DNA of 64,000 bases from Pseudomonadota bacterium (GTDB taxonomy: Bacteria; Pseudomonadota; Gammaproteobacteria; Burkholderiales; UBA9220), in assembly GCA_021845865.1 (NCBI GenBank), contig JAJZVC010000010.1, positions 840 to 64,839 of the forward strand, in the 5' to 3' direction. Of the stretch, positions 9,543 to 36,820 are shown piece after piece (the stretch's first letter is position 1; every line of letters begins with the position of its first letter). The notes under the pieces are model-generated. The model searched no databases, was not told where the DNA came from, and saw only the letters and a list, made by a program, of their open reading frames with translations. The position numbers and the translations under genes were made by a program.

Positions 9543-11141
9543 ATGAAAATCAACCTGCCGGTAACGGGTAACGAACGCCTGTTCGAACACGGCACCATCG
9601 TGTCGAAAACCGACCTCAAGGGCCTTATTACCTACGCCAACGATGCCTTCGTGGAGATGAGCGGCTTCACCTGCGAAGAGCTGATCGGCAAGAACCACAA
9701 TATCGTCCGCCATCCCGACATGCCCGCCGCCGCTTTCGCCTGGCTGTGGGACACCGTCAAGCAGGGAAAGCCCTGGCGGGGCATCGTCAAGAACCGCTGC
9801 AAGAACGGCGACCATTACTGGGTCGAGGCCTTCGTCGTGCCGGTGAGCAAGAACGGCCAGGTCGTCGAGTACATGTCGGTGCGCAGCCCCGTCAGCCGCG
9901 AACAGATCGCGGCGGCGGAAGCCCTGTACAAGGAGCTCAATGCCGGCAAATCCTTGCCTCGTCCCAGCCCCCTCAAGAAACTGACCATCAAGCGCGGGGT
10001 GCAATTCCTGGCCCTGCTCAACGCCCTGGTGCTGACCGCCAGCGCCGTCCTCGGCTTCAGCGGGCACCACGGCCTTAATGCCGTCTTGGTGGGGGCCGCC
10101 GTGCTGGTGTCGGTCATCGCCGGCCTTTCCATTTCCTCCGTCATCGACCGCGGCCTCGGCCGCATCATCCGCGTCTTCCAGCGCATCGGCGAAGGGCATC
10201 TGGACAACCGCCTGGATATCGACGGCGAGGACGAACCGGGCCAGGTGCTGGCGGCCCTGGCGGTGATGCAGGTGCACATCAAGGTGATCCTGGACGAGGT
10301 CAAGCAGGCCTCGGAAACCATCGCCAACAGCAGCCACCAGCTGAAGGCCGAGGTGGCCCGGGTGCTCGATCAGGCCCAATCCCAGAGCCAGCAGGTGATG
10401 CACGCCTCCGGCACCATGGAGGAGATGAGCGTGGCCATCAAGGACGTGGCCGACAGCGCCAGCGAGGCCGCCGCTGCCGCCAGCGAGACCCATGCCGTGG
10501 TGGAGCAGGGCAACCAGCAAATGGCCCGCAGCATGGAGGCCACGGGGCGGGTGGTGGAGGCGGTCCAGGCCTCCGGCGCCTCCATCGGCGAGCTCAACCA
10601 GTCCATCCAGCGCATCGGCACCATCACCCAGGCCATCAAGGAAATCGCCGACCAGACCAACCTGCTGGCGCTCAACGCCGCCATCGAGGCGGCGCGGGCG
10701 GGGGAACAGGGAAGGGGGTTCGCGGTGGTGGCCGACGAGGTGCGCAAGCTGGCGGAGCGCACCGCCGCCAGCACGGCCGACATCACCAACATGGTGGAAA
10801 GCATCAACGCCACCACTGGCGCGGCCGTGAACGCCATGGAGCTGGCGGCGCAGGAAGTGCAGGATGGGCTGGTGCTGATCCAGGCCAGCAACAACAGCCT
10901 GCTGGAAATCCGCCAGGCCTCCGACCGGGTGACGGCCATGGCCCAGCACATCGCCGAGGCCTCCACCCAGCAGTCGGCGGCGGGCGAGGAGATTTCCGCC
11001 GACATGGGCGAAATCGCCGCCCTGACCGAGCAGACCAGCGCAAGCATCCGCGAGGTAGGGGATACCACGGCCGCCTTGGTGGAGGTGGCCAAGAGCCTGG
11101 AAGCCCTGGTGCGGCACTTCGATGGGCAAGAAAAAGCCTAG
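9543..11141 (+). CDS. aer: Aer-like aerotaxis/energy-taxis methyl-accepting chemotaxis protein
   Basis: N-terminal PAS closely matching E. coli Aer ([21 protein letters not shown]...[13 protein letters not shown]...[15 protein letters not shown]), TM hairpin, HAMP and MCP signalling domain ([41 protein letters not shown]). Confidence 0.9.
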
Positions 11142-11173
11142 AACTAATTTTGGGCGATCCAGTCCATAAGCGT

Positions 11174-12643
11174 ATGTCGACAACAAAAACAACCGCCGAG
11201 CCCTTGGGGGCCGTGATGGCGGCCTGCCGCCAAGTGGACGCCGCCGACTCCCAGGATGTGTTCATCGAGCAATTGATTCCCCTGGCCTCGACGGCGGTGG
11301 GCGGCCACGAGGCCGCCTTGACCGCCTTGGTGGAACAGGGGTCGGCGAATCCGCGCATCCTTCACGGCGATGGCCGTTTCGCGCCGGCCATCGAGCAACT
11401 CATCCCCGAAGAGGAAATCCTGGAGCGGCTGAGGGGAGCGCTGGCGGCCGGGAACAGCGTCATGGCGCCCGGCTTCGTGGTGTTCCTGGTCCAGCATCCG
11501 GCCCAGTTTTCGTTGCTGGTGTACCTGGAGCTGACCCAGTCCCTGGAAGCGGAAAGGGAGCGGCTGCTGCCGTTTTTCATCGACCGCGTGGGCAGCGCCC
11601 TGGCCGCCCTCTATTACGCCAAGCTGTCGGAGCGGACCACCCGGGCGACGGTGGCCGCCCTGGCCAGCCTCGCGGAGCACAAGGACCACAACACCGGCGA
11701 GCACATCCTGCGGGTGGCGCGGATGGCGGATGAAATGGTCCACGTGCTGGAGGAAATGGGCGCCTACCCGGACCAGATCACGCCCGAGTTCAAGCGCTTC
11801 GTCGGCACCGCCAGCATTCTCCACGACGTGGGCAAGGTGGCGATCCCGGATTCCATTTTGCAGAAACCCGCCGCGCTGGACCCGGAGGAATGGGAGATCG
11901 TGCGCGGCCATACCTTCCACGGCAAGCGGGTGCTGGACAAGGTGAACCTGATCCTGGAGAGCGGCAATTACCTCATCGATCTCGCCGGAGAGGTGGCGCT
12001 GACCCACCACGAACACTTCAGCGGCCAGGGGTACCCCATGGGGCTGGTCGGCCAGCATATTCCCCTCGCCTCCCGCATCGTCGCCCTGGTGGACGTGTTC
12101 GACGCCCTCACCTCGCGCCGCCCCTACAAGCCCGCCTGGCCGGAGGAGGAGGCCGTGGATTACATCCGCCAGCGTGCCGGCGAGCAGTTCGACCCCATCC
12201 TGGTGGAGGCCTTTCTCAAGGTGATGGCATACCGGCGGGAAACCCTGGTGGCGGATTGGACGAGCCGTCTTTCCGTCAACGTGGAATTGCTCGACGAGGA
12301 CCATCAGCGGCTCATCGGCCTCATCAACCAGTTGGCCATGTCGGAGCGCATCGGCAACCGGCGCATCGTCGAAAGCGTTCTGGACGAGCTGATGAATTAC
12401 ACCATCGAGCACTTCCAGCGGGAAGAGGCGATGATGGCGGAACGGGGATACGCCAAGCTGGAGAGCCATATGCGCCAGCACGCGGTATTCGCCGAAACCG
12501 TCAACGACATCCGCTGGCAGTACCTGCACGGCCTGCGCTCCAACATCAACCAGAAGGTGCTGCGCTTTCTCATGAACTGGCTGCAAACCCATATCTATCG
12601 CGAGGACCGCGGCGTTTTCGCCGCCGCCGTGGCGGCGGCGTGA
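11174..12643 (+). CDS. HD-GYP phosphodiesterase fused to a C-terminal hemerythrin-like domain
   Basis: HD-GYP core (HNTGEHILRVA...ILHDVGKVAIPDSILQKP...HHEHFSGQGYP) then bacteriohemerythrin signature (ELLDEDHQRLIGLIN...YTIEHFQREE...HMRQH...WLQTHIYREDR); ATG 11174 preferred over track start 11150. Confidence 0.85.
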   Translation: MSTTKTTAEPLGAVMAACRQVDAADSQDVFIEQLIPLASTAVGGHEAALTALVEQGSANPRILHGDGRFAPAIEQLIPEEEILERLRGALAAGNSVMAPGFVVFLVQHPAQFSLLVYLELTQSLEAERERLLPFFIDRVGSALAALYYAKLSERTTRATVAALASLAEHKDHNTGEHILRVARMADEMVHVLEEMGAYPDQITPEFKRFVGTASILHDVGKVAIPDSILQKPAALDPEEWEIVRGHTFHGKRVLDKVNLILESGNYLIDLAGEVALTHHEHFSGQGYPMGLVGQHIPLASRIVALVDVFDALTSRRPYKPAWPEEEAVDYIRQRAGEQFDPILVEAFLKVMAYRRETLVADWTSRLSVNVELLDEDHQRLIGLINQLAMSERIGNRRIVESVLDELMNYTIEHFQREEAMMAERGYAKLESHMRQHAVFAETVNDIRWQYLHGLRSNINQKVLRFLMNWLQTHIYREDRGVFAAAVAAA

Positions 12644-12649: not shown

Positions 12650-13357
12650 TTATTTGGGCACCGGGATGGGGAGGAATACCGCCGTCGCCACGCTCTGGGC
12701 CACGTGGGCGATGGAACGGTTGGTCTTTTCGGCGATGATTTTCGCCAGGGTGTCCTGGCCCGCGATCATCTTGCCGAACTCCCGCTCGAAGCTGAGGTTC
12801 TTCACCGGCCCTTCCGCCTCGTTGCTGAGAAGGAACGGCTCCCCCCGGGCGTTGCGGGTATTGGCCAGCTTCCAGGCGGCGATTTCCAGGTTGCGGGCGC
12901 TGTTGTAGAGTTTCTGGGGGTCCAGGTCGTCGGTGAGGAAGAATTCGGTCTTGTTGCCGTAGGACGCCAGCAGCATTTCCTTCAAGCCGAAGCAGAAGGC
13001 CAGCACCCGGTCGCCGCTGTAATTGTCGTCGAAGGCGAGGTAAATCGCGTCGCTGCCCCGCCGCCCGTCGAGGACGAGATACTTGCGCGGCACGCCGTCG
13101 AACAGCCGGGCCGCGGCGGCATCGGCGCTGGCTTGGCCGCTCTTGCGCCATTCCTTGGGGTTGCGCTTGTAGAGTTTTTCCGTCAGCAGGCGCAGGGAAT
13201 CGAGCACCGCCTTCTGGTGCACTTCCGACACCATGTCCACGTCGCTCTTGGCGATGTAGTCGAGGCGGAAATCCCGGCCGAGGGGCTTGCCGCCGGGGGC
13301 GGCGCAGCCGGGCAGCAGGAGCAGAGACAGCAGCAGGAGCGGCAGGCGTTTTCCCAT
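12650..13357 (-). CDS. Lipoprotein of unknown function
   Basis: 235 aa with lipobox LLLLPGC after a hydrophobic leader; no family recognised. Confidence 0.7.
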   Translation of the reverse strand: MGKRLPLLLLSLLLLPGCAAPGGKPLGRDFRLDYIAKSDVDMVSEVHQKAVLDSLRLLTEKLYKRNPKEWRKSGQASADAAAARLFDGVPRKYLVLDGRRGSDAIYLAFDDNYSGDRVLAFCFGLKEMLLASYGNKTEFFLTDDLDPQKLYNSARNLEIAAWKLANTRNARGEPFLLSNEAEGPVKNLSFEREFGKMIAGQDTLAKIIAEKTNRSIAHVAQSVATAVFLPIPVPK

Positions 13358-15431: not shown

Positions 15432-16049
15432 CTAGCAGCTCGGGCAGTAGTCGCTCTGCATGCGCACGATGCCCTGGGCCACGAGGGGCAGGCGCTTATT
15501 GTCGTAGCAGGTCTTTTCCAGCCCCGTGGCGCCGCTACTGACCAGGGCGACGATGGTGCGGTTGATGAAGGGGACCTGCAAGGGGTAGCAGTAGGTGACC
15601 TTGATCTTCAGGATATTGGCATCCTGGATTGTTATGCCTCCCGGTCCCACTTCCTTGGAATAGGCCAGATTGCCGTTGGGTATCCTGTTGTTCCAGTGAT
15701 GCAGGGCATCGGCGGTGGGGTTGACGACGTCGATGCGGGAGTAGGTATCCACTTCCTGTTTGGCGATGTCGAAGCCGCCAATGACCTGGCTGTTGCTTGT
15801 GCCGTAGGTGAAGAGGGGGCGCAGACCGTTGGCCAGTCCCAGTTTCATGGCGTCCATCTTGCCCTGGTTGAGAGCGCCGGCTCGGGCGGCCTCAAAAGCG
15901 GCTAGATTGAGCGACCCTTTGGCGTAGTAGAGGAGGCCGAACTGGATGGCGCCGAGGAGGAGCAAGAGGAGCACGGGCAGGATGACGATGAATTCGCTCA
16001 TGCTCTGGCCGCGCTGGCGCGACGGGAGGTGAAGCCAGTCAGTGCTCAC
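15432..16049 (-). CDS. TadE-like pseudopilin
   Basis: [23 protein letters not shown] = prepilin-type G/xxxxEF motif plus hydrophobic helix; motif lies upstream of the first ATG (16001), so GTG 16047-16049 (overlapping the upstream stop) is the likely start. Confidence 0.75.
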
Positions 16050-16716
16050 TGCGGTTTTCGATTTCCAGGCGAAGCAGGGGGAGGGGTATCCAGCCGGTAT
16101 GGCCCTCCCGGTCGCGTACCTCGGCATGCCCCTCCTCCAGCTTCAACACTTCCAAGGGCGTGTCGGCATCGAGTGTGGCCACTTTGCCGTGGCTGACGCC
16201 GCGTCCCTCGCGCAGGTTAACACGTCCCAAGGTATGGGCAATAAGAGTTGGTGCCGCAGGGCCGGGCGGGCAGGTGGATGGCTTGGGCTCGGGTTGTGGC
16301 GTGTCGCCCAGGGCGATTTCCAGGGACTGCAGGAGGTGGGGGGTGGGTAATTTCTCGCCCGAGGCGCCGAAGCGCTCTGCTTCGGTGAGAGCCGCCATGG
16401 CTTGACGCACCCGCACCACGGCGAGGTTGTGCCAAGCCTTGGCGAAGTCGGGTTGGTGCGTCAGCAGGGTTTGGTAGCTGGCTACCGCCTCGTCGAGGCG
16501 ACCCAGTCGGGCCTGGGTGTTGCCTAGGCGAAAGAGAATCTCCACGTTGGAGGGCATCCGTTCGGCGAGCTGATTGTAGCGTTGCAGGGAGTCTTCCCAG
16601 TGGCCCGCATTGTAGGCCTGGGCGGCCTGCTCAACTTGATCCACCAGGTCGTTGTCCTCCCCGTGAGCAACAATGGGGAGCAAGAGGAGGAGGGCACACA
16701 GGAGACGCTTGGTCAT
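16039..16716 (-). CDS. Secreted TPR protein with C-terminal SH3b-like domain (TadD-position)
   Basis: Signal peptide MTKRLLCALLLLLPIVAHG; TPR-like repeats (AYNAGHWEDSLQRYNQL..., LGRLDEAVASYQTLL...); C-terminus GRVNLREGRGVSHGKVATLDADTPLEVLKLEEGHAEV...GWIP is SH3b-like. Confidence 0.7.
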   Translation of the reverse strand: MTKRLLCALLLLLPIVAHGEDNDLVDQVEQAAQAYNAGHWEDSLQRYNQLAERMPSNVEILFRLGNTQARLGRLDEAVASYQTLLTHQPDFAKAWHNLAVVRVRQAMAALTEAERFGASGEKLPTPHLLQSLEIALGDTPQPEPKPSTCPPGPAAPTLIAHTLGRVNLREGRGVSHGKVATLDADTPLEVLKLEEGHAEVRDREGHTGWIPLPLLRLEIENRSEH

Positions 16717-17072
16717 TTTCCCCCCCCGTCGTCTTGCCAGTGGGTCGCCATCCCGGTTCTCAGCCCCAGCCGGGCCATTTCCCCTGACGCCAGTTCCAGC
16801 ACTGCCCGAGCACCGGGGCAGGCGGCGAAGCGCCAGGGGGCCAGGCGTTCCACCACCCTGAGGATGCGCCCGCCGTGGTCGAGGAAGGCCGCGTCAATGG
16901 GATAAGCCATGGCCCAGGTGTGGATACCCGAGCAGGGTTCGATGAGGAGGGCTTCACCACTTTTCGGCTCGGGGCGCGCAAGAAGGCCACGGGCCCGTTC
17001 AAGGGGGCCTTCCGTACGGCGCGCACGGGGGATCAGGACCGTGCCGTTGGCTAGGATGCGCCCCGCCTTCAC
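16713..17072 (-). CDS. DUF192-like protein
   Basis: Last 119 codons of track ORF 16713..17870; GTG 17070-17072 overlaps tadC stop (GTGA); ...ERARGLLARPEPKSGEALLIEPCSGIHTWAMAYPIDAAFLD... resembles DUF192 (COG1430). Confidence 0.6.
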   Translation of the reverse strand: MKAGRILANGTVLIPRARRTEGPLERARGLLARPEPKSGEALLIEPCSGIHTWAMAYPIDAAFLDHGGRILRVVERLAPWRFAACPGARAVLELASGEMARLGLRTGMATHWQDDGGGK

Positions 17073-17956
17073 AGCGTTCCCTGAGCCATGAACTTCATCA
17101 CCAGGGGGAAGGCAAGGACGATGAAGGTGACGGGGAAGATGAACAATACCAGGGGTCCGACCAGCTTGACCGGGGCTTCCATGGCGATTTTTTCCACCAA
17201 CTGGAAGCGTTCGGTACGGCGCTGGATGGCCATGGACTTGAGCACCGGCCCCAGGCTGCCGCCGCTGCGTTCCGCCTGGATGATGGCGCCGACGAAGGAG
17301 TAAACCGGGTCCAGATCGGCCCGGTCGGCCATGCGACGCAGAGCGTCGGCCCGGGATAGGCCGGCGCGGATTTCCCTCAGTACGCGGGAGAACTCGAAGC
17401 GCAGGGGGCCGGGTGGTCCTTTCTCCACGACCTGGGCGATGGCGCCGGACAGGTTGAGGCCGGCTTCCACGGCCATGGAGATGAAGTCGAGGAAAACCGG
17501 CAGCATCTTGAGGATGGCCTTGCGGCGGCGCAGACGGGTATCGCGCACCCACAGCAGGGGATAGAAGAATCCTCCCACGGGCAGGAGGGCCAGCCACAAG
17601 GCAACGTGAATAGGGGCCACGGGCAGTAGGAGAAGCCCGAGCAGGAAGGCAATGCTGGCGGACGTGGCTTGGAGGCCGAAGAACTGTTGCGGCAGGAGGA
17701 CGTAGTCCAATCCGGCTCCCTGTAGGGTTTTCTGGATGGACTGGAGGCGGGTCACGGGCAGGTGGTTGCCGAGGAAATAGCCGTAAAAGCGCACAAAGGG
17801 CCAGAGCAGGACGACGGGTCGGGGCGGTCGGTCCAGGTTCTCGCGCTGGTCGGCGGGGAGTTTGTGCCACAAGGTCGCCACGGTGAAGAAAATGAGCGCC
17901 ACGGCCAAGCCGAAACCGAGGGCGATAAGGAACTGGAAGAGGGTGGCGTCAGACAT
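17069..17956 (-). CDS. tadC: Tad pilus inner-membrane platform protein TadC (GspF-like)
   Basis: 295 aa from ATG 17954-17956 (overlaps tadB stop); T2SS-F-type domain, N- and C-terminal TM helices. Confidence 0.85.
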   Translation of the reverse strand: MSDATLFQFLIALGFGLAVALIFFTVATLWHKLPADQRENLDRPPRPVVLLWPFVRFYGYFLGNHLPVTRLQSIQKTLQGAGLDYVLLPQQFFGLQATSASIAFLLGLLLLPVAPIHVALWLALLPVGGFFYPLLWVRDTRLRRRKAILKMLPVFLDFISMAVEAGLNLSGAIAQVVEKGPPGPLRFEFSRVLREIRAGLSRADALRRMADRADLDPVYSFVGAIIQAERSGGSLGPVLKSMAIQRRTERFQLVEKIAMEAPVKLVGPLVLFIFPVTFIVLAFPLVMKFMAQGTL

Positions 17957-18797
17957 CGATGGTGGTGATCTTGCTGATGGCAAAGTAGCCCAGGGACTCC
18001 ATGACCACGATCACGCCCAGTACCGCCCAGCCGGTGTGGGTGGTGAAGAGGAGGCTCATGGCGTCGGGTTCCATGAAATAAAGAATGACGGCGAGAACCA
18101 CGGGCAGGAAGGTCATGACCATGCCCTGGAGCTTGCCTTGGGCGGTGAGGGAATGGATTTTCCCCTCCATCATGGCCTTGTTGCGCAGGATGTCGGCCTG
18201 GGTCTCCAGAATGTTCGCCAGGTTGCCGCCTACTTCGCGGGAGATGCGCATCCCTGCCGTCACCAGCTGGAAGTCGGGGTGGGAAATACGCGTGGCCATG
18301 TGTTCCAGGGCGGTATCGAAATCCAGGCCCATGCGCTGCTCCCTCTGGAACAGCTCGAACTCCTGGCTCAGGGGGGGGCGCTGCTCGTCCACTAGCTTTT
18401 CCAGGGACACGGCCATGCTGCTTCCCGCCCGCAGGCTGCTGGAAAGGGCCATGAGGGCGTCAGGAAGCTGGGTGATGAATTTCTTGAGGCGGGCTTGCTG
18501 CAGGCGGCGGTAGACCAAGCGCGGCAGGAACGCCACCAGGGCCATTGCCATGGCAGCCAGGGGCCAGGAACCCGTCAGGACCTTAATTGTCAGTGGAACA
18601 AGGGCCAGCAGTGCGAGGTTATAGTAAAAGATGCGCTGGGAGTCCACGAAAAGAAACATCTCTCCCAGGGTGTTGCTGGCCGTGTGGGTGAAGGCCTCCC
18701 GGTAGCGGCGCAGAAAGGCCGAGCCTCCCAGCAGGGCCACTGTCCCGATGAGGGTGCCGCCGACGAAGGCGAGCAGGATGATAGCCAGCTTGGTCAC
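17949..18797 (-). CDS. tadB: Tad pilus inner-membrane platform protein TadB (GspF-like)
   Basis: 282 codons from GTG 18795-18797 (GTGA overlap with ATPase stop): VTKLAIILLAFVGG...; T2SS-F-type domain. Confidence 0.85.
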   Translation of the reverse strand: MTKLAIILLAFVGGTLIGTVALLGGSAFLRRYREAFTHTASNTLGEMFLFVDSQRIFYYNLALLALVPLTIKVLTGSWPLAAMAMALVAFLPRLVYRRLQQARLKKFITQLPDALMALSSSLRAGSSMAVSLEKLVDEQRPPLSQEFELFQREQRMGLDFDTALEHMATRISHPDFQLVTAGMRISREVGGNLANILETQADILRNKAMMEGKIHSLTAQGKLQGMVMTFLPVVLAVILYFMEPDAMSLLFTTHTGWAVLGVIVVMESLGYFAISKITTIDV

Positions 18798-20467
18798 GCT
18801 GCGTTGCCCTCCGCGCGGAAGATGCTGAGGTCGGTCTGGATGCCTCGCTGGGAGAGGGTTTCGTAGAACTCGGGAATGGCGCCGGTGGCGACGAATTCTC
18901 CCTGCACCTTGCCGTCGGGACCATATCCCCGTTGGCGGAAGAGGAAGATGTCCTGGAGTTGGATGGTGCCGCTCTCGGTGCCGGTGATCTCGCTGATGTA
19001 GGTGATCTTGCGGCTGCCGCAGGCGAAGCGCGTCTGCTGCACGATGAGGTGTATGCCGGAGGCGATCTGCTCGCGGATGGCGGAGATGGGCATCTCCATG
19101 CCCGCCATCAGCACCATCACCTCGATGCGGGACAGGGCATCCCGGGGCGAGTTGGCGTGGACCGTGGTAAGGGAGCCGTCGTGGCCGGTGTTCATGGCCT
19201 GAAGCATGTCCAGGGCTTCGCCGCCGCGGCATTCGCCCACCACGATGCGGTCGGGGCGCATGCGCAGGCTGTTCTTCACCAGGTCGCGGATGGCGACCTC
19301 GCCCTTGCCCTCGGCGTTGGCGGGACGGGCCTCGAGGGAAACCAGGTTGGGCTGGTTGAGCTGCAGTTCCGCCGCGTCCTCGATGGTGACGATGCGCTCG
19401 GTGTGGGGGATGAAATTGGACAGCACGTTGAGGAAAGTGGTCTTGCCCGAGCCCGTGCCGCCGGAGACCACGATGCTGCGCCGCTGTTCCACGGCGACCT
19501 TGAGGAAACTCACCATGTTCTCGCTGATGGAGCCGAATTGCACCAGTTCCTCGATTTCCAGCCGGTGGCGGAAAAATTTCCGGATGGTAACGCTGGGCCC
19601 CTTCAAGGCCAGGGGCGGAATGATGGCATTGACCCGGGAACCGTCCTGCAAGCGGGCGTCCACCATGGGGGAGCTCTCGTCGATGCGCCGCCCCAGGGGG
19701 GAAACGATGCGTTCGATGACGGACATCACGGCTTCGTCGCTGGTGAAGGTGACGGGGGTGCGCTCCAGACGGCCTTTGCGTTCGACGAAGATCTCTTCGT
19801 GGCTGTTGACCATGATCTCGCTCACGCTGTCATCCGCCAGAAGGGGTTCCAGGGGGCCCAGGCCCACCGCTTCACTGAGTACCGACTGGGCGAGAAGACC
19901 GCGGTCCACGTCGGCTGGGAGTGTCATGCCAGCGAGGATGTCGTCGATCATCTGGCGGGTGAGGGTGCGTAGCTCATTCTCGCCCATGCGGCTCACGTCC
20001 ACCCGCTTGAGGTCCATCTGCTGGAGCAGGGCTTGGTGGACTTTCTGCTGCCACTGACCCAGTTCGGCCAGTTGGCTGGCATTGTAGGCGCCCTCATGTG
20101 GCGCTTCGGCCAGGGGCGGTGCAGTAGGGGCGGAAGGCGCGGTGACAGGTGCAGTTGCCTTCTGAGCGGCAGGGTCCTGGCCGTTGTCCAGATAGATGCG
20201 GTAACCCCCGGCTTGGATTTCATCGGCGGGGCCGAGGGGGCCTTGGCGGGAGATGCGCTCGCCGTTGACGAAGGTGCCGTCCACGGAGCCTGCGTCCTCC
20301 ACGAAGAGTTGGCCGTTTTCCTCGCTCACGGTGAAGTGGGTCAGCGCCGCCTTCTGGCCGAAGAGGGTGACGAGGTTGTCGGGGCCGCTGCCAGCAGTGA
20401 AGCGGTTGCCCGCGCAGGAAACGGTGCTGGCATCGCCCCGGGGCGGGACCACGCGAATCTTGATCAT
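18794..20467 (-). CDS. tadA: CpaF/TadA secretion ATPase with N-terminal FHA domain
   Basis: N-terminus has FHA signature (GSGPDNLVTL...THFTV...LFVEDAGSVDGTFVNGERI); C-terminal CpaF core with Walker A GGTGSGKTT. Confidence 0.9.
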   Translation of the reverse strand: MIKIRVVPPRGDASTVSCAGNRFTAGSGPDNLVTLFGQKAALTHFTVSEENGQLFVEDAGSVDGTFVNGERISRQGPLGPADEIQAGGYRIYLDNGQDPAAQKATAPVTAPSAPTAPPLAEAPHEGAYNASQLAELGQWQQKVHQALLQQMDLKRVDVSRMGENELRTLTRQMIDDILAGMTLPADVDRGLLAQSVLSEAVGLGPLEPLLADDSVSEIMVNSHEEIFVERKGRLERTPVTFTSDEAVMSVIERIVSPLGRRIDESSPMVDARLQDGSRVNAIIPPLALKGPSVTIRKFFRHRLEIEELVQFGSISENMVSFLKVAVEQRRSIVVSGGTGSGKTTFLNVLSNFIPHTERIVTIEDAAELQLNQPNLVSLEARPANAEGKGEVAIRDLVKNSLRMRPDRIVVGECRGGEALDMLQAMNTGHDGSLTTVHANSPRDALSRIEVMVLMAGMEMPISAIREQIASGIHLIVQQTRFACGSRKITYISEITGTESGTIQLQDIFLFRQRGYGPDGKVQGEFVATGAIPEFYETLSQRGIQTDLSIFRAEGNAA

Positions 20468-20472: not shown

Positions 20473-21804
20473 TTACTCCGCCAGGTTGTCCTTGAGCAGC
20501 GCGTCGCGCTTCTGCTCCACCAGGGCCGCCCGGGCGTCCGCCTGGGGGTCGGTGGTGTTGCCCGCCTCGACGACGTGGGGTTCGACGAACACCACCAGTT
20601 CGGTGCGGTTGTTGCGGAATTCGCTGGAGCTGAATAGTGCCCCCAGCACCGGGATATCACCCAGGAAGGGGAGCTTGTTGATGTTGTTGGAGATGCTGGC
20701 GTCGATGAGGCCGGAGAGGGCGATGGGTTCGCCATCCTTGAGGTTGACCTCCGCGCTGGTACGGCGGGTGAGGAAGCCGGGGATACCCTGGACGGTCACC
20801 GAGTTGTCCACCGTGCTGACTTCGGTGTCCACCTTGATGAGGACATTGTTGTTGGCGTCGGTGACGGGTTTGAAGTTCAGCTTGATCCCGTAGTCCTTGA
20901 AGGTGACGTTGCTTTGGCCGGTGGTGTTGGTGGTGGGGATGGGAATCTGTCCACCCGCCAGGAACTCGGCCTGCCCGCCGCTGCGGGTGCTGAGGCGGGG
21001 AGAGGCCAGTTCCACGGCATCCCCGTTGGTTTCCATCAGGTTGAGGATGGAGGTGATATTGGTGCCCCAGCTGAGAAACTGGCGCGGTCCCGTGAGGCCC
21101 GGAACGGTGCTTTGGAAGCGGCCGATGCGCAGACCGAAGTTGGGGCCGGCGATGGCGGTACTGGTTTGGGGGGTGACCCAGTCAAAACCGATGCGCTCCA
21201 GGGCGGTTTTCTTGAACTCCATGATGCGCACATTTAGGAGGACCATCTTCTTCATGGTCATGTCGCTTTCCAGGGTGAGGTCCACCACCCGGGGGAAAGA
21301 CTTGGTAATGGAGGTGAGTTGGGGTTTCACCTTGGGGTCCACGGCGCCTTCCAGGAACACCTGGCCCCCCACTTGCCGCGCGGTGATGCCGCCGATGGGC
21401 TGGATAAGGGCGCGGATGTCGGACAGGACGCGGGCGGAATCGTTCTCCGAAACGTGAACGGCGAGCTGCATCTCCCGTCCGTCCTTGAGCCAGATGTGCA
21501 CGGTGGTATCGCCGGCGGCTTCCGCCATGAGGAGAAGCTGGTCGTTGGGCAGAATGGTGGAACTCAGGAGCTTGGCGTTGCCCATGGCGACCTTGGAAAC
21601 GGGGCGGATGGGCAGGACCCTCACTTCGCCCGCATACAGCTCAAGACGTTCCATGAGAATGGGCGGCTTCCTGGAAATTTCGGTCTTGGCAGGGACCTTG
21701 AGCGACTCTTTGGGTGTGTCCTTGGCGGGTTCAGCCAAGGCGGAGGCTGCGGCGAGAGCCAGGCAGGCGGCCAGAATCCGTGCCGGGGAGAGTCTTATCT
21801 TCAT
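20473..21804 (-). CDS. cpaC: Tad pilus secretin CpaC/RcpA
   Basis: Signal peptide, BON-like N-domain and secretin C-domain (...LPFLGDIPVLGALFSSSEFRNNRTELVVFVEPHVV). Confidence 0.9.
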   Translation of the reverse strand: MKIRLSPARILAACLALAAASALAEPAKDTPKESLKVPAKTEISRKPPILMERLELYAGEVRVLPIRPVSKVAMGNAKLLSSTILPNDQLLLMAEAAGDTTVHIWLKDGREMQLAVHVSENDSARVLSDIRALIQPIGGITARQVGGQVFLEGAVDPKVKPQLTSITKSFPRVVDLTLESDMTMKKMVLLNVRIMEFKKTALERIGFDWVTPQTSTAIAGPNFGLRIGRFQSTVPGLTGPRQFLSWGTNITSILNLMETNGDAVELASPRLSTRSGGQAEFLAGGQIPIPTTNTTGQSNVTFKDYGIKLNFKPVTDANNNVLIKVDTEVSTVDNSVTVQGIPGFLTRRTSAEVNLKDGEPIALSGLIDASISNNINKLPFLGDIPVLGALFSSSEFRNNRTELVVFVEPHVVEAGNTTDPQADARAALVEQKRDALLKDNLAE

Positions 21805-22775
21805 GGTTTGTCCTGTTTCTTGGTGTCGTTGCCGCTGGCTGCCGGGGAGGCGGATGCGGGTGGAGTGGTGGTGTGTGCCTTGGCCGGGGCGGGCGAGGAA
21901 ACGGCCGGCAGGTTCATGCTGATGGGGACCTGGATGGTGGTCGCCACGCCGGGTTGGCTGCCGGGCATGATGTAGCTCACGGTGTCGCCCAGGTTGAGGC
22001 TGTGGGTGAACAGTTGCTCCATTTGCAGGGGGGCGAGGGCGGCAACGTCGGCGTCATCCCCCCGGCCGCGCAGGATGGCGGTGAGGGAGCCCGTATCCCG
22101 GGCCAGTACCACGCGCTCTGCATCTTCGGGGGTCACGTCCAGGGTCACGGTGGCATAGCGCAGGCCGAATTTGTCACTGCCCTGTTGTACGCTCGCGGCA
22201 GCCGAGTACTGGCTGCCCGTGGCGATCACCTTCACGTTTTGCAGGAGGGGCAGCACCATGCTGCCGCTGCTTCCCCGGCTGCTCAGCATCAGGTCGATAC
22301 GGTCTCCGGGCATGAGCAGGCCGCTGAAGGAACTGACCTCGTCCACGTTGATGGTGATGGCCCGGCGGCCGTCCTTCAATTTGTCCGCCAAACCCGCCGC
22401 GCCGCCATCGGCGAGGTAGCTGAGAAGCAGTGGCTGCCCCTGCTCTAGGGGCTTGATAAGGACCTGGCCCTGGATCTTGTCGAAGTTGCCCGGCAGGATC
22501 GTCTCCGGATAGACATAATCTTTGGGTACCTGGCGAACGGCCATGTTGTTGTCGCCGACAGTGGTTCCGGCGGCCAGGGCGAACTTGGCCACCACCACGG
22601 GGACGAGGTCCTTTGTCTGTTCCGTGTGGACCTGCTCCCGCAGCTTGGTCTCTTCCTGCTCCAGATAGACATAGGCAAGGATACTGGCCAGTACCCCCAG
22701 CACTCCTCCAGCCACGGCAAGTACGAGGGTGCGGCGGGTGCGCATCAGTTCGGCAAAATCGGGGCGTGTGAGCAT
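21801..22775 (-). CDS. cpaB: Flp pilus assembly protein CpaB/RcpC
   Basis: 324 aa from ATG 22773-22775; N-terminal TM anchor then SAF/RcpC-type domains (VVVAKFALAAGTTV...GRRAITINVDEVSSFSGLLMPGDRIDL). Confidence 0.85.
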   Translation of the reverse strand: MLTRPDFAELMRTRRTLVLAVAGGVLGVLASILAYVYLEQEETKLREQVHTEQTKDLVPVVVAKFALAAGTTVGDNNMAVRQVPKDYVYPETILPGNFDKIQGQVLIKPLEQGQPLLLSYLADGGAAGLADKLKDGRRAITINVDEVSSFSGLLMPGDRIDLMLSSRGSSGSMVLPLLQNVKVIATGSQYSAAASVQQGSDKFGLRYATVTLDVTPEDAERVVLARDTGSLTAILRGRGDDADVAALAPLQMEQLFTHSLNLGDTVSYIMPGSQPGVATTIQVPISMNLPAVSSPAPAKAHTTTPPASASPAASGNDTKKQDKP

Positions 22776-22803
22776 GGTTCCCTGTCGCTTTTTTGAGTTT
22801 GAG

Positions 22804-23004
22804 TTATTTATTTGATGGCAATTCCGGTAACGCCATGGACGTGACATAACCCTGGTAATTCTGCTGGATGACGACGATCAGCTTGTTGATATAGGGCTGC
22901 CCCGTTTTGTCCTTCGCCAGCAGCGCCATGGCCACAAACATCACCACGATGACGTACTCGGTGTAAGATTGCCCGGAATTCCGCTTTATGTCCATCTTAA
23001 TCAT
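22804..23004 (-). CDS. Flp-like prepilin (second, divergent copy)
   Basis: 66 aa; KRNSGQSYTEYVIVVMFVAMALLA = G/xxxxEY Flp motif plus hydrophobic helix; ATGA overlap with upstream gene; about 49 percent G+C by hand count over 22801-23004. Confidence 0.6.
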   Translation of the reverse strand: MIKMDIKRNSGQSYTEYVIVVMFVAMALLAKDKTGQPYINKLIVVIQQNYQGYVTSMALPELPSNK

Positions 23005-23663
23005 CGCGTTACAATAGTCATGCCAATGGCGGTGCGGCTTCCCGAGGGGGCGAAGGCCAGGGAGAGTTCCTGGTTGTCCTTGCGCAGCACCATCTGGCGC
23101 CCGCCGTTGCGGGCCTTGCCTTCATTCACCAGGGTCCAGCCGTCCTTGCCCATGGATTCACGGTAATAGGAGGCGCTGGCGTCCACGGAGAGGGGGCAGA
23201 AGGCCACCAGGGTGCGGCCCTGGCGGTCTCCGTCGTTGCTCCGGATGTCGTTCACCACCTCGCTCCCCGGCGGGAGGGGCGCTCCCTGGCCCAAGAGGGG
23301 GCGGGGCGACATTTTGAGGGGGCGCTGGGAGAGGTAGCCTTCCGCCGTGTTCCCGGCGGCCGGGCGAACCTGTACCACGAGGAAGAAGTCCCCCTGGGCG
23401 CGGGAGATGTTGCGCCAGGGCCCCACGGTGTTCTCCACGTAGTTCTTCCAGCCAGTGTCGGTCCAGCGCTGGCGGTAATAGGCCAGCACCTGGGGGAGGG
23501 AGTTCTTGCTGTGGAAATACTGAATGCGCATGGGGACGCCGTTGTAGACCATGTCCTGGGCCACCCAGGAAACGGTGGATTGGGGTGGCGCTTCCATGGT
23601 CACCCAGGCCCGGGCGGCGGGGGCGGCGAGGAGAAGCAGAGCGGCGAGGAGAAGGGCTCTCAT
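23001..23663 (-). CDS. Secreted protein of unknown function inside the Tad operon
   Basis: 220 aa from ATG 23661-23663: signal peptide MRALLLAALLLLAAPAARA; two halves each with a YYR-x6-GW core. Confidence 0.6.
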   Translation of the reverse strand: MRALLLAALLLLAAPAARAWVTMEAPPQSTVSWVAQDMVYNGVPMRIQYFHSKNSLPQVLAYYRQRWTDTGWKNYVENTVGPWRNISRAQGDFFLVVQVRPAAGNTAEGYLSQRPLKMSPRPLLGQGAPLPPGSEVVNDIRSNDGDRQGRTLVAFCPLSVDASASYYRESMGKDGWTLVNEGKARNGGRQMVLRKDNQELSLAFAPSGSRTAIGMTIVTR

Positions 23664-24511
23664 GGGGCTTGCCGGTCCTTGGGGGCCTGGTCGGGGACGA
23701 TGCGGCCGTAATCCAGTCCCTTGAAGTCGGGGATCACGTCGCTCACGTAGCCCGTGAGCGTGCTGACCCAGCCGGAGAGGACGGTGGTCGGCACGAGATT
23801 GGCCACCTGGCAGAGCTCGGAGTGGGGGTCCTGCCCCGAGGTGCAGTGGTTGCCGCTGCCGGGGCCGGAAACCTGCCAAGCGTCGGTGATGATGACGTTG
23901 GGGCGGGGGATGATGGTGATGGGCGCCACGTAGAGGAGGGGTGGGATCATGCCGCTGCCGCCGGGACTACCTTGTTGGGCCACGTTGACGCTCATCGTGC
24001 TCGAGTACATGCCCTTGATGTTGACTTGGAACTGGCTTTTGTGCACGTCACCGAAGCTCTCGAGCCAGCCCGCGACGGTGTTGAACATGTTCACCAGGAA
24101 GTTGAAGACCGTGTTGTAGATGATCCCCGGCGATGTCTGGCCCTGGCCGCTTTCGGTCTGGGCGGTCACGTTGTCGTAGCTCGCCAGCATGGAGTTTCCA
24201 GAGGGGTCGGTCCACAGGGGATTGTACCGCGCGGGCGGGCCTGAACCGTCGGAGACGCTGAGGGGGGTGCCGGGAGCGGTGAAGATACGGTTGCGCACCT
24301 CGTTCTGCAGCGCCGTATTGCCCTTGGCGTTCGGTGTCCAGACGGTGCGCTCCCAGGCCACGTAGCGGCTGCCCTGGGCCGCGCTGTGGTTGATGTCCAT
24401 GTATTTTCCCAGGAGCGGGATGGCGAGGAAGATGGGGATGAGCACCAGGCAGACCACCAGGAATTCGGCCATGGCCTGCCCGTGCAGGGAAAAGGATGGC
24501 TTACGGTTCAT
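23660..24511 (-). CDS. TadE/TadF-like pseudopilin
   Basis: 283 aa from ATG 24509-24511; SLHGQAMAEFLVVCLVLIPIFL = G/xxxxEF motif plus hydrophobic helix. Confidence 0.7.
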   Translation of the reverse strand: MNRKPSFSLHGQAMAEFLVVCLVLIPIFLAIPLLGKYMDINHSAAQGSRYVAWERTVWTPNAKGNTALQNEVRNRIFTAPGTPLSVSDGSGPPARYNPLWTDPSGNSMLASYDNVTAQTESGQGQTSPGIIYNTVFNFLVNMFNTVAGWLESFGDVHKSQFQVNIKGMYSSTMSVNVAQQGSPGGSGMIPPLLYVAPITIIPRPNVIITDAWQVSGPGSGNHCTSGQDPHSELCQVANLVPTTVLSGWVSTLTGYVSDVIPDFKGLDYGRIVPDQAPKDRQAP

Positions 24512-26144
24512 AGGCGCTGAGTCCACTGGTGTTGGTGGAAGAGGGGGAGGGGTGGGATAGCAGTGACTTCCAGCCGAAGAGGGTTTCGTAGGCCTGGGAG
24601 CGCTCCTGGTCGGTGGTGTCGGCCAGGGTGGCCTCCCAGTAAGGGCTGAAGAGGTTGCTGTACTGCTTGTCGAGGGCGAAGTGCAGCTTGCCCTTGGAGA
24701 TGGCGTAGAGGGCGCTCGCATCGGGGGGCTCCTCAAGCCGCATGTTGTTCAGGCCGAAGGGTCCGAGCCCGTTGGCGGGCGCGCCAAAACCCGCCTGGGC
24801 GGCGGTGCGTGCCTTGGCCATGTCCTTGCTCACCACGATGGTGAGCTGGGGGCCATCGTTGTTTTGGGTGGATGGGTCACCGGGATTGCTGATGCCGTAA
24901 TAGGGCTTGAGGCCGATGGATGAGATGGATGCCTCGCCATACTCGCCCACCGCCATTTCGAATACATCCGCGGTCTCAGAGGGGGCGCCGCCATACGAGG
25001 AGGAATTGTTGTTGCTGTTGTAGATGTCCTCCCCCGGCGTGCCGTCACCGGGAGCATTGGCGTAGGCGGCGCCCCAGCCCAGGGGGACGGTGATGGACGG
25101 GTCGATGTTGAAGGGGAGGATGTTGCAGTAATCCCAGCCGCAGGGGTAGGGGATGCCGTGCCAGTGGCAGAATTGGACGCCGCAGATGACTTTCACCTTG
25201 ACGTGCACGGCGCCGTAGGCCCCCATGGTGTCCGCGGCGGACCAGGAGTACTGCTTGTTGACCTGTTTCAGTTCCGTGCCGCCGCGGCGGTTGACGCTTA
25301 GGTCGGCGCTGGCATCGATCTTCACCGGCAGGGGGATGTCGTTGATGATGTCCTGCGCCCACTTGGGGAGCCAGCTCAGGAGCCAGTCGGTGTTAAACAC
25401 CTCCCCGCCGAGCGTCCATCCACGGTTTTGGGCGAAGCTGTCGTTGGAGGCCCGGGTGACGTCGGCGAAGCGGCTCATTTCCGGCTGGCTGGCGTCGTAG
25501 CGGCTGGTGTATTTCCACCAGGCGCTGGCATCCTTGATGAGGATGCCGAGCCGGTAGAGATCCCCCGGGAGGTCGCTGCCGCTGCTCGGCCATTTCAAGA
25601 GTTTGGCATCCGGGTCGTTGAGGGCCAGTATCCCGGTCTGCACCGTGGAGCCGCTGTAGAGCAGGTTCTGGATGATGGCCTCCCCGTTGCCGTAGTGGAA
25701 CGTCTCTTCCAGGTCGGAGAGAGCACCCATCCAGTATCCCAGCACTTTGATGAGTGCAGGGAGGACGGAATCCACGAACACATCCTCGAAGCCGTTATAG
25801 GCACCGGCGAGGGCGTCGCAGACGGCGTCCAGGAAGGGGATGGGCTCGCACACGGCGGCGAGGTTGTCGATGACCTGGCCGGTGAAGCGGAACCAGGAGG
25901 CGAGGCCCACCATCTGGCTCACGGCGACCTGATTGGCGACCATGGCCCGATTCATGTAGGCGGTGAAGTTGTAATCCCGCGCGGCGATGGTGGCGACACT
26001 GTACGCCGTGGCGTCGGCGGTGTTTTGAAGCTCCATCTTGGAGCGGGTAAGCTGGGCGGTGTTGAAGAGGAGCAGCAATATAATGCCCACCACCATCAGG
26101 AGAATGGTGGCGAAGACCAGGGACTGGCCCCGTTGTCGAATCAC
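24501..26144 (-). CDS. TadG-like pilus-associated protein
   Basis: 547 aa, GTG start; N-terminus IRQRGQSLVFATILLMVVGIILLLLF typical of TadG/TadE-G-like N-terminal domain; large Cys-containing C-terminal region. Confidence 0.7.
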   Translation of the reverse strand: MIRQRGQSLVFATILLMVVGIILLLLFNTAQLTRSKMELQNTADATAYSVATIAARDYNFTAYMNRAMVANQVAVSQMVGLASWFRFTGQVIDNLAAVCEPIPFLDAVCDALAGAYNGFEDVFVDSVLPALIKVLGYWMGALSDLEETFHYGNGEAIIQNLLYSGSTVQTGILALNDPDAKLLKWPSSGSDLPGDLYRLGILIKDASAWWKYTSRYDASQPEMSRFADVTRASNDSFAQNRGWTLGGEVFNTDWLLSWLPKWAQDIINDIPLPVKIDASADLSVNRRGGTELKQVNKQYSWSAADTMGAYGAVHVKVKVICGVQFCHWHGIPYPCGWDYCNILPFNIDPSITVPLGWGAAYANAPGDGTPGEDIYNSNNNSSSYGGAPSETADVFEMAVGEYGEASISSIGLKPYYGISNPGDPSTQNNDGPQLTIVVSKDMAKARTAAQAGFGAPANGLGPFGLNNMRLEEPPDASALYAISKGKLHFALDKQYSNLFSPYWEATLADTTDQERSQAYETLFGWKSLLSHPSPSSTNTSGLSAYEP

Positions 26145-26201: not shown

Positions 26202-26480
26202 TTAGTTACCGCCCTGAGGGTTGCTGTAGGAGCCCAGACCCTTGTCTTTGTTGGCCTCGGTCTGACCTTGGTTGGCGGCTTCCTTCGCCTGCTGCTGGGC
26301 CGTCTGGCTGCTCTGGCCGGCCATTTCCTGGGACATGCCCGCCACGTCTTCGCGCACGGTCTTGCCGAAGTACATGTAAACGCCGATGGCGGCGACGGCC
26401 ACCAGGATGACGATGATGATGTATTCGGTCATGCCTTGGCCGAGTTGACGGCGGCGCGCAGGGAATCGGGTGGCTTTCAT
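26202..26480 (-). CDS. flp: Flp-family type IVc prepilin with extended Gln-rich C-terminal tail
   Basis: 92 aa; RRRQLGQGMTEYIIIVILVAVAAIGVY = G/xxxxEY motif plus helix; AAGAGGAGA SD upstream; AT-rich leader region 26481-26591. Confidence 0.75.
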   Translation of the reverse strand: MKATRFPARRRQLGQGMTEYIIIVILVAVAAIGVYMYFGKTVREDVAGMSQEMAGQSSQTAQQQAKEAANQGQTEANKDKGLGSYSNPQGGN

Positions 26481-26591: not shown

Positions 26592-28142
26592 TTACGGCGC
26601 AAGGCCGAAAAACTGGCGCACGCGGCGCAGGATGTCCGTGTGCTCCTGGGCCACCTGTTTGGCCTGGGCGGCGGCGTCCATTTCTTCCAGGCGGTGCTCC
26701 CGTTCCAGGGCGCGGGTGGCGAGAACCTTGGAGATTTCCTCGGCCAGGGACGGGCGGGAATGGAGAATGCCCTCGAAGGAGGCCTTGTCCAGGCGGTAGC
26801 ATTCCACGTTGCTGCGGGCGACGACGGTGGAGGCCCGGGGGCTGCCGGTCATCAGGCCCATTTCGCCGAAGAAGCTGCCTTCCCGCAGGGTGGATATCCA
26901 GCGTTTTTCGCCTTCTGGCGTTTCCAGGAAGACGTCGACCTGGCCCTCGGTGAGGATGTACAGCCAGTGGGCCACCGCCCCTTGCCGGGTGAGTATCTCG
27001 CCCTGGGCGAACGGGGCGTACGCCAGCCTTTCGGCGATGGTGCCCAGTTCCTCGCGGCTGAGGGTGTTGAACAGCTCCACTTTTTCCAGCGCCGCCAGGC
27101 GGCGGGCCAGTTCCCGCTGGCGCACCGCCAGTTCGTGCTTTTCGCTTTCCTTGACGATGTGGCGGCTCTCCTCGGGAGTGGCGAAGCGGATGCCGGCCCG
27201 CTGGAAGGCGGTGAAGAGGTGGGCGCGGACGATGGAGTCGGTGGGGTCGTCCAGGGCCAGTTCGGTGAGCCAGTAGCGCAAGGCGTAGCGGGCGTAGTTC
27301 TTGTCGAATTCCATCAGCACGCAATTGGGGAGGGGATCGCGGGCCGCGTTGGGGATGTCCGCGCCGCGCACGGCTTCCTCGGCGGTCTGGATGACCCGGA
27401 AGGGGGGCTCCTTGAGGTCCACGTTGAACCATATCCAGCGCCGCAGCTGCACCGGCTGTCCGCTACGCTGGCCGAGGACGCTGAATTTGTTCTTCATCAA
27501 CTGGCTGTTGGGGATGACCACCGTTTCCCAGTTACGGGTCTCCACCACCGTGGAGCGCCAGCGGATGTCCACCACCCGGCCCACCACGTCGTCGGCCTTG
27601 ATCCAGTCCCCCACCTCCACCGACTTGTCCAGTTGCAGGGCGATGCCGCCGAGGATGTTGCCCAGGGTGTCCTGCATGGAGAAGGCCACCACCGCCGTCA
27701 CCACCGCCGAGGTGGTGACGATGCCCGACAGATCCATGCCGGCGTAGCGCAGCCGCATCATGCCCCAGACGAAATAGGCGCCGAAGGTGACGATGTCCTC
27801 CGAGATGCGCGGGGGGTGGACGCCCAGGCGGGAAAGGATGAGGCGGAAGAGGAAGATGGCCCAGAGGCGGATCAGGGCCACCCCCTGGATGAGGAAAAAA
27901 ACCTCCCGCAGGGTGGCGGCCATGGCCGGCAGTTCCAGCTGGTGGAACAGGGTGCTGACCAGGGCGCCGGCCAGGCTGGTGGCGAGGAACAGCAGGGAGT
28001 TGCGGATGTCCCGCCGTTCCGTGGGCAGAAGGCGGTAGGAGAGAGCGGTGATGGCCAGGGTGGCCACCAGCAGGACGGGGAAGCTGTCCCAGCCGAAAAG
28101 ACGCATCACGGCATGCCACAGGGCGATCGGGTCGGCGGTCAT
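26592..28142 (-). CDS. MscS-family mechanosensitive channel fused to a cyclic-nucleotide-binding domain
   Basis: 516 aa; TM region plus MscS beta-domain (VGDWIKADDVVGRVVDIRWRSTVVETRNWETVVIPNS) and C-terminal cNMP-binding fold (FFGEMGLMTGSPRASTVVA). Confidence 0.9.
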   Translation of the reverse strand: MTADPIALWHAVMRLFGWDSFPVLLVATLAITALSYRLLPTERRDIRNSLLFLATSLAGALVSTLFHQLELPAMAATLREVFFLIQGVALIRLWAIFLFRLILSRLGVHPPRISEDIVTFGAYFVWGMMRLRYAGMDLSGIVTTSAVVTAVVAFSMQDTLGNILGGIALQLDKSVEVGDWIKADDVVGRVVDIRWRSTVVETRNWETVVIPNSQLMKNKFSVLGQRSGQPVQLRRWIWFNVDLKEPPFRVIQTAEEAVRGADIPNAARDPLPNCVLMEFDKNYARYALRYWLTELALDDPTDSIVRAHLFTAFQRAGIRFATPEESRHIVKESEKHELAVRQRELARRLAALEKVELFNTLSREELGTIAERLAYAPFAQGEILTRQGAVAHWLYILTEGQVDVFLETPEGEKRWISTLREGSFFGEMGLMTGSPRASTVVARSNVECYRLDKASFEGILHSRPSLAEEISKVLATRALEREHRLEEMDAAAQAKQVAQEHTDILRRVRQFFGLAP

Positions 28143-35639: not shown

Positions 35640-35703
35640 ACGGCGGCGACGGTTTTCGCGAGAAGCGCTAAAATGGCCTGATTTCGGAATAAGGGGGAGG
35701 CAC

Positions 35704-36751: not shown

Positions 36752-36820
36752 AGGGGCTTGATATGTCGGGGTCATTGGTCTAAGTTTTACTAACTGCGTG
36801 TCGCAAGAAAAGGCGGGCCG

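Follow-up and report, generated by a model that had tools for sequence, protein, structure and literature searches.

An FHA domain with a degenerate phosphothreonine site on the motor ATPase of Tad-like pilus loci that lack tadZ

What does an FHA domain do on the motor of a pilus machine whose locus has no tadZ? TadZ is usually presented as a component peculiar to Tad systems, one that sets the position of the machine and brings in its other parts, and in canonical Tad/Flp systems its gene (tadZ, or cpaE) stands beside tadA. The DNA discussed here is a 64-kb stretch of contig JAJZVC010000010.1 from a member of the Burkholderiales, referred to in its entirety as the window. It holds a Tad-like pilus operon in which that gene is missing, and the motor ATPase of the operon, a protein of the CpaF/TadA class, carries an FHA domain at its N-terminus. 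An original prediction, made from the letters of the window, had offered two explanations: Ser/Thr-kinase control of the pilus, or recruitment through an FHA domain that replaces TadZ. The evidence turns against the first and argues, with reservations, for a form of the second in which the domain would dock to a partner without reading phosphorylation.

The fused FHA domain and the vacant tadZ slot

The gene in question (18794..20467, minus strand) is an intact open reading frame (ORF) for a motor ATPase of 557 residues. Pfam recognizes the T2SSE domain (PF00437) at residues 200-487 (E=6e-65), the Walker A motif GGTGSGKTT lies at residues 336-344, and the invariant Asp-box, Walker B and His-box regions are conserved in 69 homologues. 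The best NCBIfam match is TIGR03819 (TadA-family conjugal transfer-associated ATPase), which at 333 bits falls below its cutoff of 373, and no dedicated CpaF equivalog is among the NCBIfam matches listed. Ahead of this motor, residues 24-87 match the FHA family PF00498 (E=8.2e-9; 36.2 bits against a cutoff of 20.7), and a phmmer search of PDB sequences returns the FHA domains of GarA and OdhI, with E=1.5e-5 for GarA and weaker values beyond it. AlphaFold2, given 21 homologues, folds residues 1-100 into an all-beta sandwich with a mean predicted local distance difference test score (pLDDT) of 94.7, in agreement with the FHA fold, a beta-sandwich of about 11 strands. The fold search was made with a separate model of this domain, as matches to the ATPase of a full-length model would have swamped those to the FHA domain. 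The top matches found by Foldseek in the PDB are all FHA domains (GarA, OdhI, FhaA, CT664, Rv1747, ArnA, EmbR and Ki67), with E-values down to 2.8e-8 and TM scores of 0.74-0.83. Profile search, structure prediction and fold comparison agree that the N-terminal domain is, as modelled, a genuine FHA fold, and the predicted fusion of this domain to a CpaF/TadA ATPase stands.

The full-length AlphaFold2 model has a pLDDT of 82 and a modest predicted TM score (pTM) of 0.56. In it the FHA domain covers residues 1-95, residues 101-127 are disordered (pLDDT <50), residues 130-201 form three long helices, and an N-terminal domain with the ATPase core occupies 205-550. The linker (residues ~96-128, some 30 in all) is disordered and rich in Pro, Ala and Thr, with a Thr-rich segment, KATAPVTAPSAPTAPP. 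The fusion is not a chance one, because 118 of the 120 best homologues in a collection of 5.8 billion proteins carry both FHA and T2SSE domains, and the FHA domain is full-length in them. Those homologues that bear names come from Burkholderiales, Betaproteobacteria, Oxalicibacterium, Herminiimonas, Sulfuritalea, Methylophilaceae and Gammaproteobacteria.

The slot that tadZ would occupy is closed in the window. The secretin gene ends with TAA at 20475-20473, five bases (ACCCC) follow, and the ATG of the ATPase lies at 20467-20465, with a GGAG ~10 nt upstream of it within the last secretin codons. With only 5 nt between the two there is room for no gene, just as had been predicted. To look further afield, a hidden Markov model (HMM) of TadZ was built from sequences found in 80 loci, each with up to 10 kb of flank on either side, which were obtained by scanning a genome collection with the alignment of the family. 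This HMM recognizes its positive controls, an 'AAA family ATPase' of Burkholderia pyrrocinia (3e-43) and CpaE of Rhizobium phaseoli (2e-21), and it finds no TadZ/ParA-like ORF in any frame of the window at E<=1. The window thus departs from the canonical Tad/Flp arrangement, in which TadZ/CpaE is encoded beside tadA, and the claim that tadZ is missing is borne out over the whole 64 kb.

The same arrangement recurs across the family. An iterated HMM finds an N-terminal FHA domain in 65 of the 82 CpaF ORFs of the genome-collection loci. It was used in place of a single-sequence phmmer search with the FHA domain of the window, which gave 53 and missed 12 of the 65; Pfam, applied to 10 CpaFs that phmmer had missed, reports FHA in 8 and a ParA-like N-terminus in 2. 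Eight loci (L054, L078, L057, L060, L065, L068, L076 and L077) encode fusions of a ParA-like/TadZ domain to CpaF, and a further five of the 82 ORFs, from Firmicutes and Chloroflexi, are short. L054 and L078 are labelled only as uncultured bacteria.

Normal co-occurrence of FHA-CpaF with tadZ was looked for and was not seen. The TadZ HMM has zero ORF matches in the 64 FHA-CpaF loci (10 kb to each side, both strands) and none in L081, a locus on a Moraxella bovis plasmid (NZ_CP087831); in L084, which encodes an orthologue of the window protein with 81% identity, and in the more distant L085, no ParA-like family is among the precomputed Pfam matches. Plain CpaFs behave differently. All five short CpaF loci of the genome sample and both annotated controls have tadZ directly upstream. 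As a complementary control a metagenome collection was scanned with canonical, FHA-less CpaFs, and the 78 CpaFs so recovered include none with an FHA domain; TadZ lies within 300 bp upstream in 55 of the 57 that have at least 1.2 kb of upstream sequence. Overall, 62 of 64 unfused, FHA-less CpaF loci have tadZ directly upstream, against none of the 64 FHA loci. Across the sampled loci FHA-CpaF and TadZ are mutually exclusive, and one N-terminal position has three alternative occupants: a separate upstream tadZ, a fused TadZ or an FHA domain.

These states fall into order in a rough neighbour-joining tree, which is based on the ATPase domain and carries no support values. Loci with a separate TadZ are outermost, those with a fused TadZ come next, and the FHA-CpaFs form essentially one clade, inside which TadZ-fused L054 falls beside L072. 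The proteobacterial clade has the FHA-CpaFs of Myxococcota as its sister group.

The phosphothreonine site and selection on the domain

Canonical FHA domains contact phosphothreonine and the peptide backbone through an Arg that follows a conserved Gly, the Ser of an SxxH motif and the Asn of an S-x-N-G-T loop. In FHA1 of Rad53 these residues are R70 (beta3-4 loop), S85 (beta4-5) and N107 (beta6-7), and GarA has Arg, Ser and Asn at the same three positions. In the window protein the three columns hold S27, A41 and D63, whether it is aligned to GarA by phmmer or to GarA and Rad53 by hmmalign, so that every contact residue is replaced and Asp stands in place of Asn. G26 and H44, which are structural, are retained, as is the N68-G69 pair further downstream. 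The R-S-N triad occurs in 0 of the 117 closest homologues, in which the commonest triplets are K-A-S (39), K-G-S (24), K-G-A (13) and S-A-D (7), and it is degenerate throughout the beta/gamma-proteobacterial clade of FHA-CpaFs. It is kept at 17 genome loci, from Myxococcota, metagenome-assembled genomes of Verrucomicrobiota, Kiritimatiellia and Lentisphaerae type and similar lineages, all of them basal in the tree. Judged by these residues, the FHA domain of the window is probably unable to read phosphothreonine.

This bears directly on kinase control, the first of the two original explanations. A Hanks-type Ser/Thr kinase and PP2C phosphatase encoded elsewhere in the genome could phosphorylate a Tad component or the linker of CpaF itself; the FHA domain would read the mark and switch the pilus, as Fha1 does with PpkA and PppA. 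Reading phosphothreonine is the classical role of FHA domains, the linker offers threonines, the basal relatives keep the triad, Kil loci hold several FHA proteins (PMC8460266), and in two loci taken up below a kinase gene lies directly upstream of flp. Against all this stands the loss of the contact triad in the window protein and in its closest homologues, which makes kinase control unlikely here.

The neighbourhood gives it little help. Comparison of the ~60 predicted genes of the window with Pfam, a scan for kinase motifs and a custom kinase HMM reveal no Pkinase or PP2C gene in the 64 kb, in agreement with the original prediction; what the window does hold is a histidine kinase, response regulators, GGDEF proteins, an HD-GYP-type protein and a methyl-accepting chemotaxis protein. 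By the kinase HMM, 8 of the 64 FHA loci have a Hanks kinase no further than 10 kb away, but only 3 of the 41 loci of the degenerate clade do. Several of the eight are weak matches or lie in kinase-rich phyla, and a kinase is unconvincing as a component of the system. We regard phosphothreonine control of this pilus as improbable, and on this point the original prediction is not supported.

A domain that has lost its binding residues might be a relic, functional in a Kil-like, phospho-regulated ancestor and now a passenger with no role, the absence of tadZ being an independent trait of the clade. The rates of substitution speak strongly against this. Between the window and L084 the ratio of nonsynonymous to synonymous substitution rates (dN/dS) is 0.095 for the FHA domain, equal to that of the ATPase core (0.10) and 4.5 times below that of the linker (0.43). 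Several FHA positions, G26, H44, D58, T65, N68, G76-P77, D82 and Y89, are near-invariant within the clade, and the domain is full-length in nearly all homologues with a fold predicted at very high confidence. These values point to a degenerate FHA domain that is still used and that purifying selection constrains as tightly as the ATPase. At long range the domain does diverge faster, with 34% identity to L085 against 70% for the ATPase, as a relic might; this would fit co-evolution with a lineage-specific partner, and at that distance synonymous sites are saturated, for which reason dN/dS of the window or L084 against L085 was disregarded. That the domain is a mere leftover therefore appears very improbable.

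Docking and its alternatives

The reading that we prefer, at a probability of about one half, is that the FHA domain of the window protein stands in for TadZ as a docking module that needs no phosphorylation; it is the better reading, though unproven. Carried on its flexible tether, the domain would bind a protein partner and so bring in the hexameric motor, fix its place or license it, either at the TadB/TadC platform or at some cellular landmark. It would in this way take on the part that TadZ plays in canonical Tad systems as a hub or positioning factor.

Several known machines offer partial likenesses, and two of them, EssC and SctD, are precedents for such a use of degenerate FHA domains on secretion machines. 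The FHA domains of EssC, the ATPase of the type VIIb secretion system, lack a phosphothreonine site and bind the pseudokinase EssB independently of phosphorylation (PMC11217815). As in the window, FHA is there fused to the ATPase of a secretion motor, but EssC is a membrane ATPase of FtsK/SpoIIIE type with two FHA domains, from Gram-positive bacteria, and its homology to the window protein is limited to the FHA fold. In SctD of type III secretion systems (YscD, PscD, PrgH, EscD) a degenerate FHA fold likewise provides a structural surface for docking, on the cytoplasmic side of a machine that spans the envelope, although SctD is a protein of the inner-membrane ring and not an ATPase. The FHA-like family of SctD (PF16697) matches the FHA domain of the window below its cutoff (24.9 bits against 33.2) and also matches many of the homologues, and PscD and a type III secretion FHA protein are among the Foldseek matches of the domain.

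Another analogue is TadZA of Bdellovibrio bacteriovorus, a TadZ-TadA fusion (bioRxiv 10.64898/2026.07.08.737194) in which the TadZ portion binds RomR, a polar hub, and docks the motor there. Like the window protein, TadZA has an extra N-terminal domain on a flexible linker before the same ATPase, and no separate tadZ; the domain is a ParA/MinD-like NTPase in the one and an FHA beta-sandwich in the other. The eight sampled TadZ-CpaF fusions match the TadZA arrangement and adjoin the FHA clade in the rough tree.

The tether could also serve regulation in cis. The FHA domain would then fold back onto the linker, the three-helix bundle or the ATPase ring of CpaF and gate ATP turnover or the choice between extension and retraction, with no partner and no relation to TadZ. 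The tethered layout does resemble that of the best structural matches, GarA and OdhI, whose FHA domains bind an intramolecular segment; CpaF is a bifunctional motor in need of some switch (PMC12019362, PMC11300603); and strong purifying selection shows a domain in use. The AlphaFold2 model, with its disordered linker and modest pTM, gives no sign of a docked FHA domain, and gating in cis would leave unexplained both the strict absence of tadZ and the fact that sister lineages carry a TadZ domain in this very place. We consider it unlikely, though less so than phosphothreonine control.

The fusion as such has been described before. A cryo-EM study (Nat Commun 2025, PMC12019362) defines class III CpaFs, mostly from Betaproteobacteria, with the layout FHA-IDR-3HB-NTD-CAD in its notation and E3HIW0 of Achromobacter xylosoxidans as example. 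The window protein shares the order of domains, as modelled by AlphaFold2, and its homologues share the mostly betaproteobacterial bias. That paper treats the FHA domain as a phosphothreonine binder and never mentions TadZ or CpaE, whereas in the window the triad is lost and tadZ is absent.

KilF, the central ATPase of the Kil apparatus for contact-dependent killing in Myxococcus xanthus, also has an N-terminal FHA domain (eLife 2021, PMC8460266). Compared by description, KilF and the window protein share this domain on a CpaF-type ATPase and are each the one ATPase of their system. They differ in that the kil genes lie in two clusters with several extra FHA proteins (PMC8460266), while the window has one compact cassette with one FHA domain, and in that the sampled Myxococcota relatives keep R-S-N while the pocket of the window is degenerate. 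Genes of toxin-delivery type follow the cassette on the same strand in two of the related loci: an RHS repeat-associated core protein of ~1500 residues in L081 (14940-19490), and a ShlB/TpsB transporter with a protein of >2145 residues in L085 (14961-21716). They recall the killing function of Kil and are not conserved in the window, where radC comes next. With Fha1/TagH and its PpkA and PppA, from the H1 type VI secretion system of Pseudomonas and the analogue named in the original prediction, the window has in common an FHA protein on a contact-related nanomachine. Fha1/TagH, however, stands alone, its phosphothreonine pocket is intact, and a kinase and a phosphatase are encoded next to it; the window shares none of these features.

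Set beside Kil, the FHA-CpaFs could be viewed as a TadZ-independent, Tad/Kil-like lineage in which the FHA domain took over the role of TadZ. The basal relatives with the Arg/Ser/Asn triad (the Kil-like Myxococcota and the Planctomycetes-Verrucomicrobia-Chlamydiae group) may still read phosphothreonine and would be gated by it; the proteobacterial clade would be a derived, constitutive version, docking to a new, lineage-specific partner. We offer this wider scenario tentatively, as a possibility with the odds somewhat against it.

A number of observations weigh against docking in the place of TadZ. As FHA forms essentially one clade, its exclusivity with TadZ represents one or a few ancient events and not 64. 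A tadZ gene could lie elsewhere in these genomes, the examined range being 8-10 kb to each side, or 64 kb for the window. In two metagenomic control loci, L120 and L129, the CpaF lacks FHA and no tadZ adjoins it, which shows that a plain CpaF does not strictly require TadZ as a neighbour; the short CpaF is preceded there by a gene of ~490-520 residues instead (L120 1438-4205, L129 6113-9257). Lys replaces Arg in many members of the clade and could keep some affinity for phosphate. Three loci of the degenerate clade, L003, L007 and L004, do have a Hanks kinase nearby, and in L003 (2447-3790) and L007 (2130-3470) it is fused to a cyclic-nucleotide-binding domain and encoded immediately upstream of flp, in the same orientation, a minority observation that is not explained away. 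A partner of the FHA domain is hypothetical, and the replacement of TadZ is a correlation. Of the second original explanation, therefore, the correlation is supported, while functional equivalence of the two proteins is proposed here at the strength given above.

The pilus cassette and its surroundings

The FHA-CpaF gene belongs to a minus-strand operon of 13 genes that runs from 26480 down to 15432 (Table 1), in the order flp, tadG, tadE-like, x, flp2, cpaB, cpaC, FHA-cpaF, tadB, tadC, DUF192, TPR, tadE, where x has no assigned function. Components of the canonical Tad/Flp system related to RcpC/CpaB, RcpA/CpaC, TadB, TadC and TadE/F/G are all present, and cpaB, cpaC, cpaF, tadB and tadC follow one another in one operon order with overlapping or near-abutting junctions. 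The same 13-gene cassette is found in L084 (81% identical) and in L085, by independent gene calls and precomputed Pfam matches. The ATPase is the single motor of a Tad-like (type IVc) pilus machine, and the machine represents a widespread beta/gamma-proteobacterial subtype.

Table 1. Genes of the pilus cassette and the FHA-coding segment, in window coordinates
Feature	Length (residues)	Position	Strand	Basis
Candidate Flp-type major pilin	92	26202..26480	-	Motif …GQGMTEYIIIV…
TadG-like	547	24501..26144	-	Pfam Tad PF13400, E=7e-7
TadE-like pseudopilin candidate	283	23660..24511	-	Hydrophobic N-terminus after G/A…E motif; no profile match
Cassette gene without assigned function	220	23001..23663	-	Signal-peptide-like N-terminus; no Pfam/NCBIfam family
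Candidate second Flp-type pilin	66	22804..23004	-	Motif only, …GQSYTEYVIVV…
CpaB/RcpC		21801..22847	-	Pfam RcpC + SAF; TIGR03177 152 bits, cutoff 71
Secretin (CpaC/RcpA type)	443	20473..21804	-	Pfam T2SS-T3SS_pil_N + Secretin
FHA-CpaF (TadA-class) motor ATPase	557	18794..20467	-	Pfam, AlphaFold2, Foldseek
FHA-domain DNA (residues 1-95)		20183..20467	-	Pfam, alignment to GarA and Rad53 FHA1
TadB (T2SSF platform protein)	282	17949..18797	-	GTG start overlaps CpaF stop
TadC (T2SSF platform protein)		17069..17983	-	Pfam
DUF192 protein, conserved cassette member		16713..17087	-	Pfam
TPR + SH3 protein, possibly TadD-like accessory		16039..16716	-	Pfam
TadE-family pseudopilin		15432..16127	-	Pfam TadE, E=4e-14

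The pilin assignments are the least secure. Both small ORFs have a G-x4-EY-like motif followed by a hydrophobic stretch, and neither matches a pilin profile. At the position of the candidate major pilin the Moraxella locus has a gene annotated 'pilus assembly protein'; at that of the second candidate there is a small gene in L081 and L084 and a gene for 171 residues in L085. The gene without assigned function has positional equivalents in L081, L084 and L085 and looks coding, with a high GC content at third codon positions (GC3), and NCBIfam gives no specific name to the cassette proteins that lack an assigned function. Among the predicted genes of the window there is no match to a prepilin peptidase (Peptidase_A24, TadV/CpaA). 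Pilin processing must rely on a gene outside the window, and the peptidase may be shared with another system; Bdellovibrio is likewise reported to use a prepilin-processing gene located elsewhere.

Directly upstream of the candidate flp gene lies a gene (26592-28142, minus strand) for an MscS-type channel with a C-terminal cyclic-nucleotide-binding domain. At this position L003 and L007 have their kinase with a cyclic-nucleotide-binding domain. An HMM of that domain found no further cases in the 80 loci, and the association with the cassette is treated as coincidence. A few kb from the operon on the other side are genes for a PAS-HAMP methyl-accepting chemotaxis protein (9543-11141, plus strand) and an HD-GYP-type (HD_5) protein with a hemerythrin domain (11150-12643, plus strand), and GGDEF proteins are encoded at 46719-47738 and 52702-53610; input to the pilus from cyclic di-GMP or redox state is possible.

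On the plus strand of the window a 2-oxoacid:ferredoxin oxidoreductase (29578-32177) is followed by ferredoxin, FAD and Nuo51-like genes (32174-35639) and by a cluster for the small and large subunits of a [NiFe] hydrogenase (36821-41641). The sequence of the window matches mine-drainage metagenomes, and this redox and hydrogenase stretch (29578-41641) fits a chemolithotroph. Next to it, in a row on the plus strand (41795-46718), come genes for a TPR and SlipAM (Slam-like) outer-membrane protein, a FecR-domain protein and a TPR-GT41 glycosyltransferase resembling O-GlcNAc transferase. Four further ORFs look coding by their high GC3 and belong to no Pfam family: 12650-13357 (minus strand) and 36131-36751, 37910-38569 and 52178-52705 (all plus strand).

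The practical impact of these results is modest. The FHA-CpaF fusion is already published (class III CpaF, PMC12019362; KilF, PMC8460266) and very common, and what is added concerning function is a testable hypothesis. Two points go beyond the cited papers: the exclusivity of FHA and TadZ, with three alternative occupants of one position, and the loss of the phosphothreonine triad across a whole clade. In the searchable literature, which does not cover subscription journals, no paper was found that links FHA-CpaF with the absence of TadZ, and none that describes the loss of the triad. The second point corrects an assumption, made both in the literature and in the original prediction, that an FHA domain on CpaF means signalling through phosphothreonine; the members of this clade have lost the residues for binding. 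The first shows a very large proteobacterial family of Tad-like loci that does without tadZ and always carries FHA on its motor, and it prompts one to ask by what means such machines are localised and activated. Separate TadZ, fused TadZ and FHA at one position amount to a natural experiment with three states.

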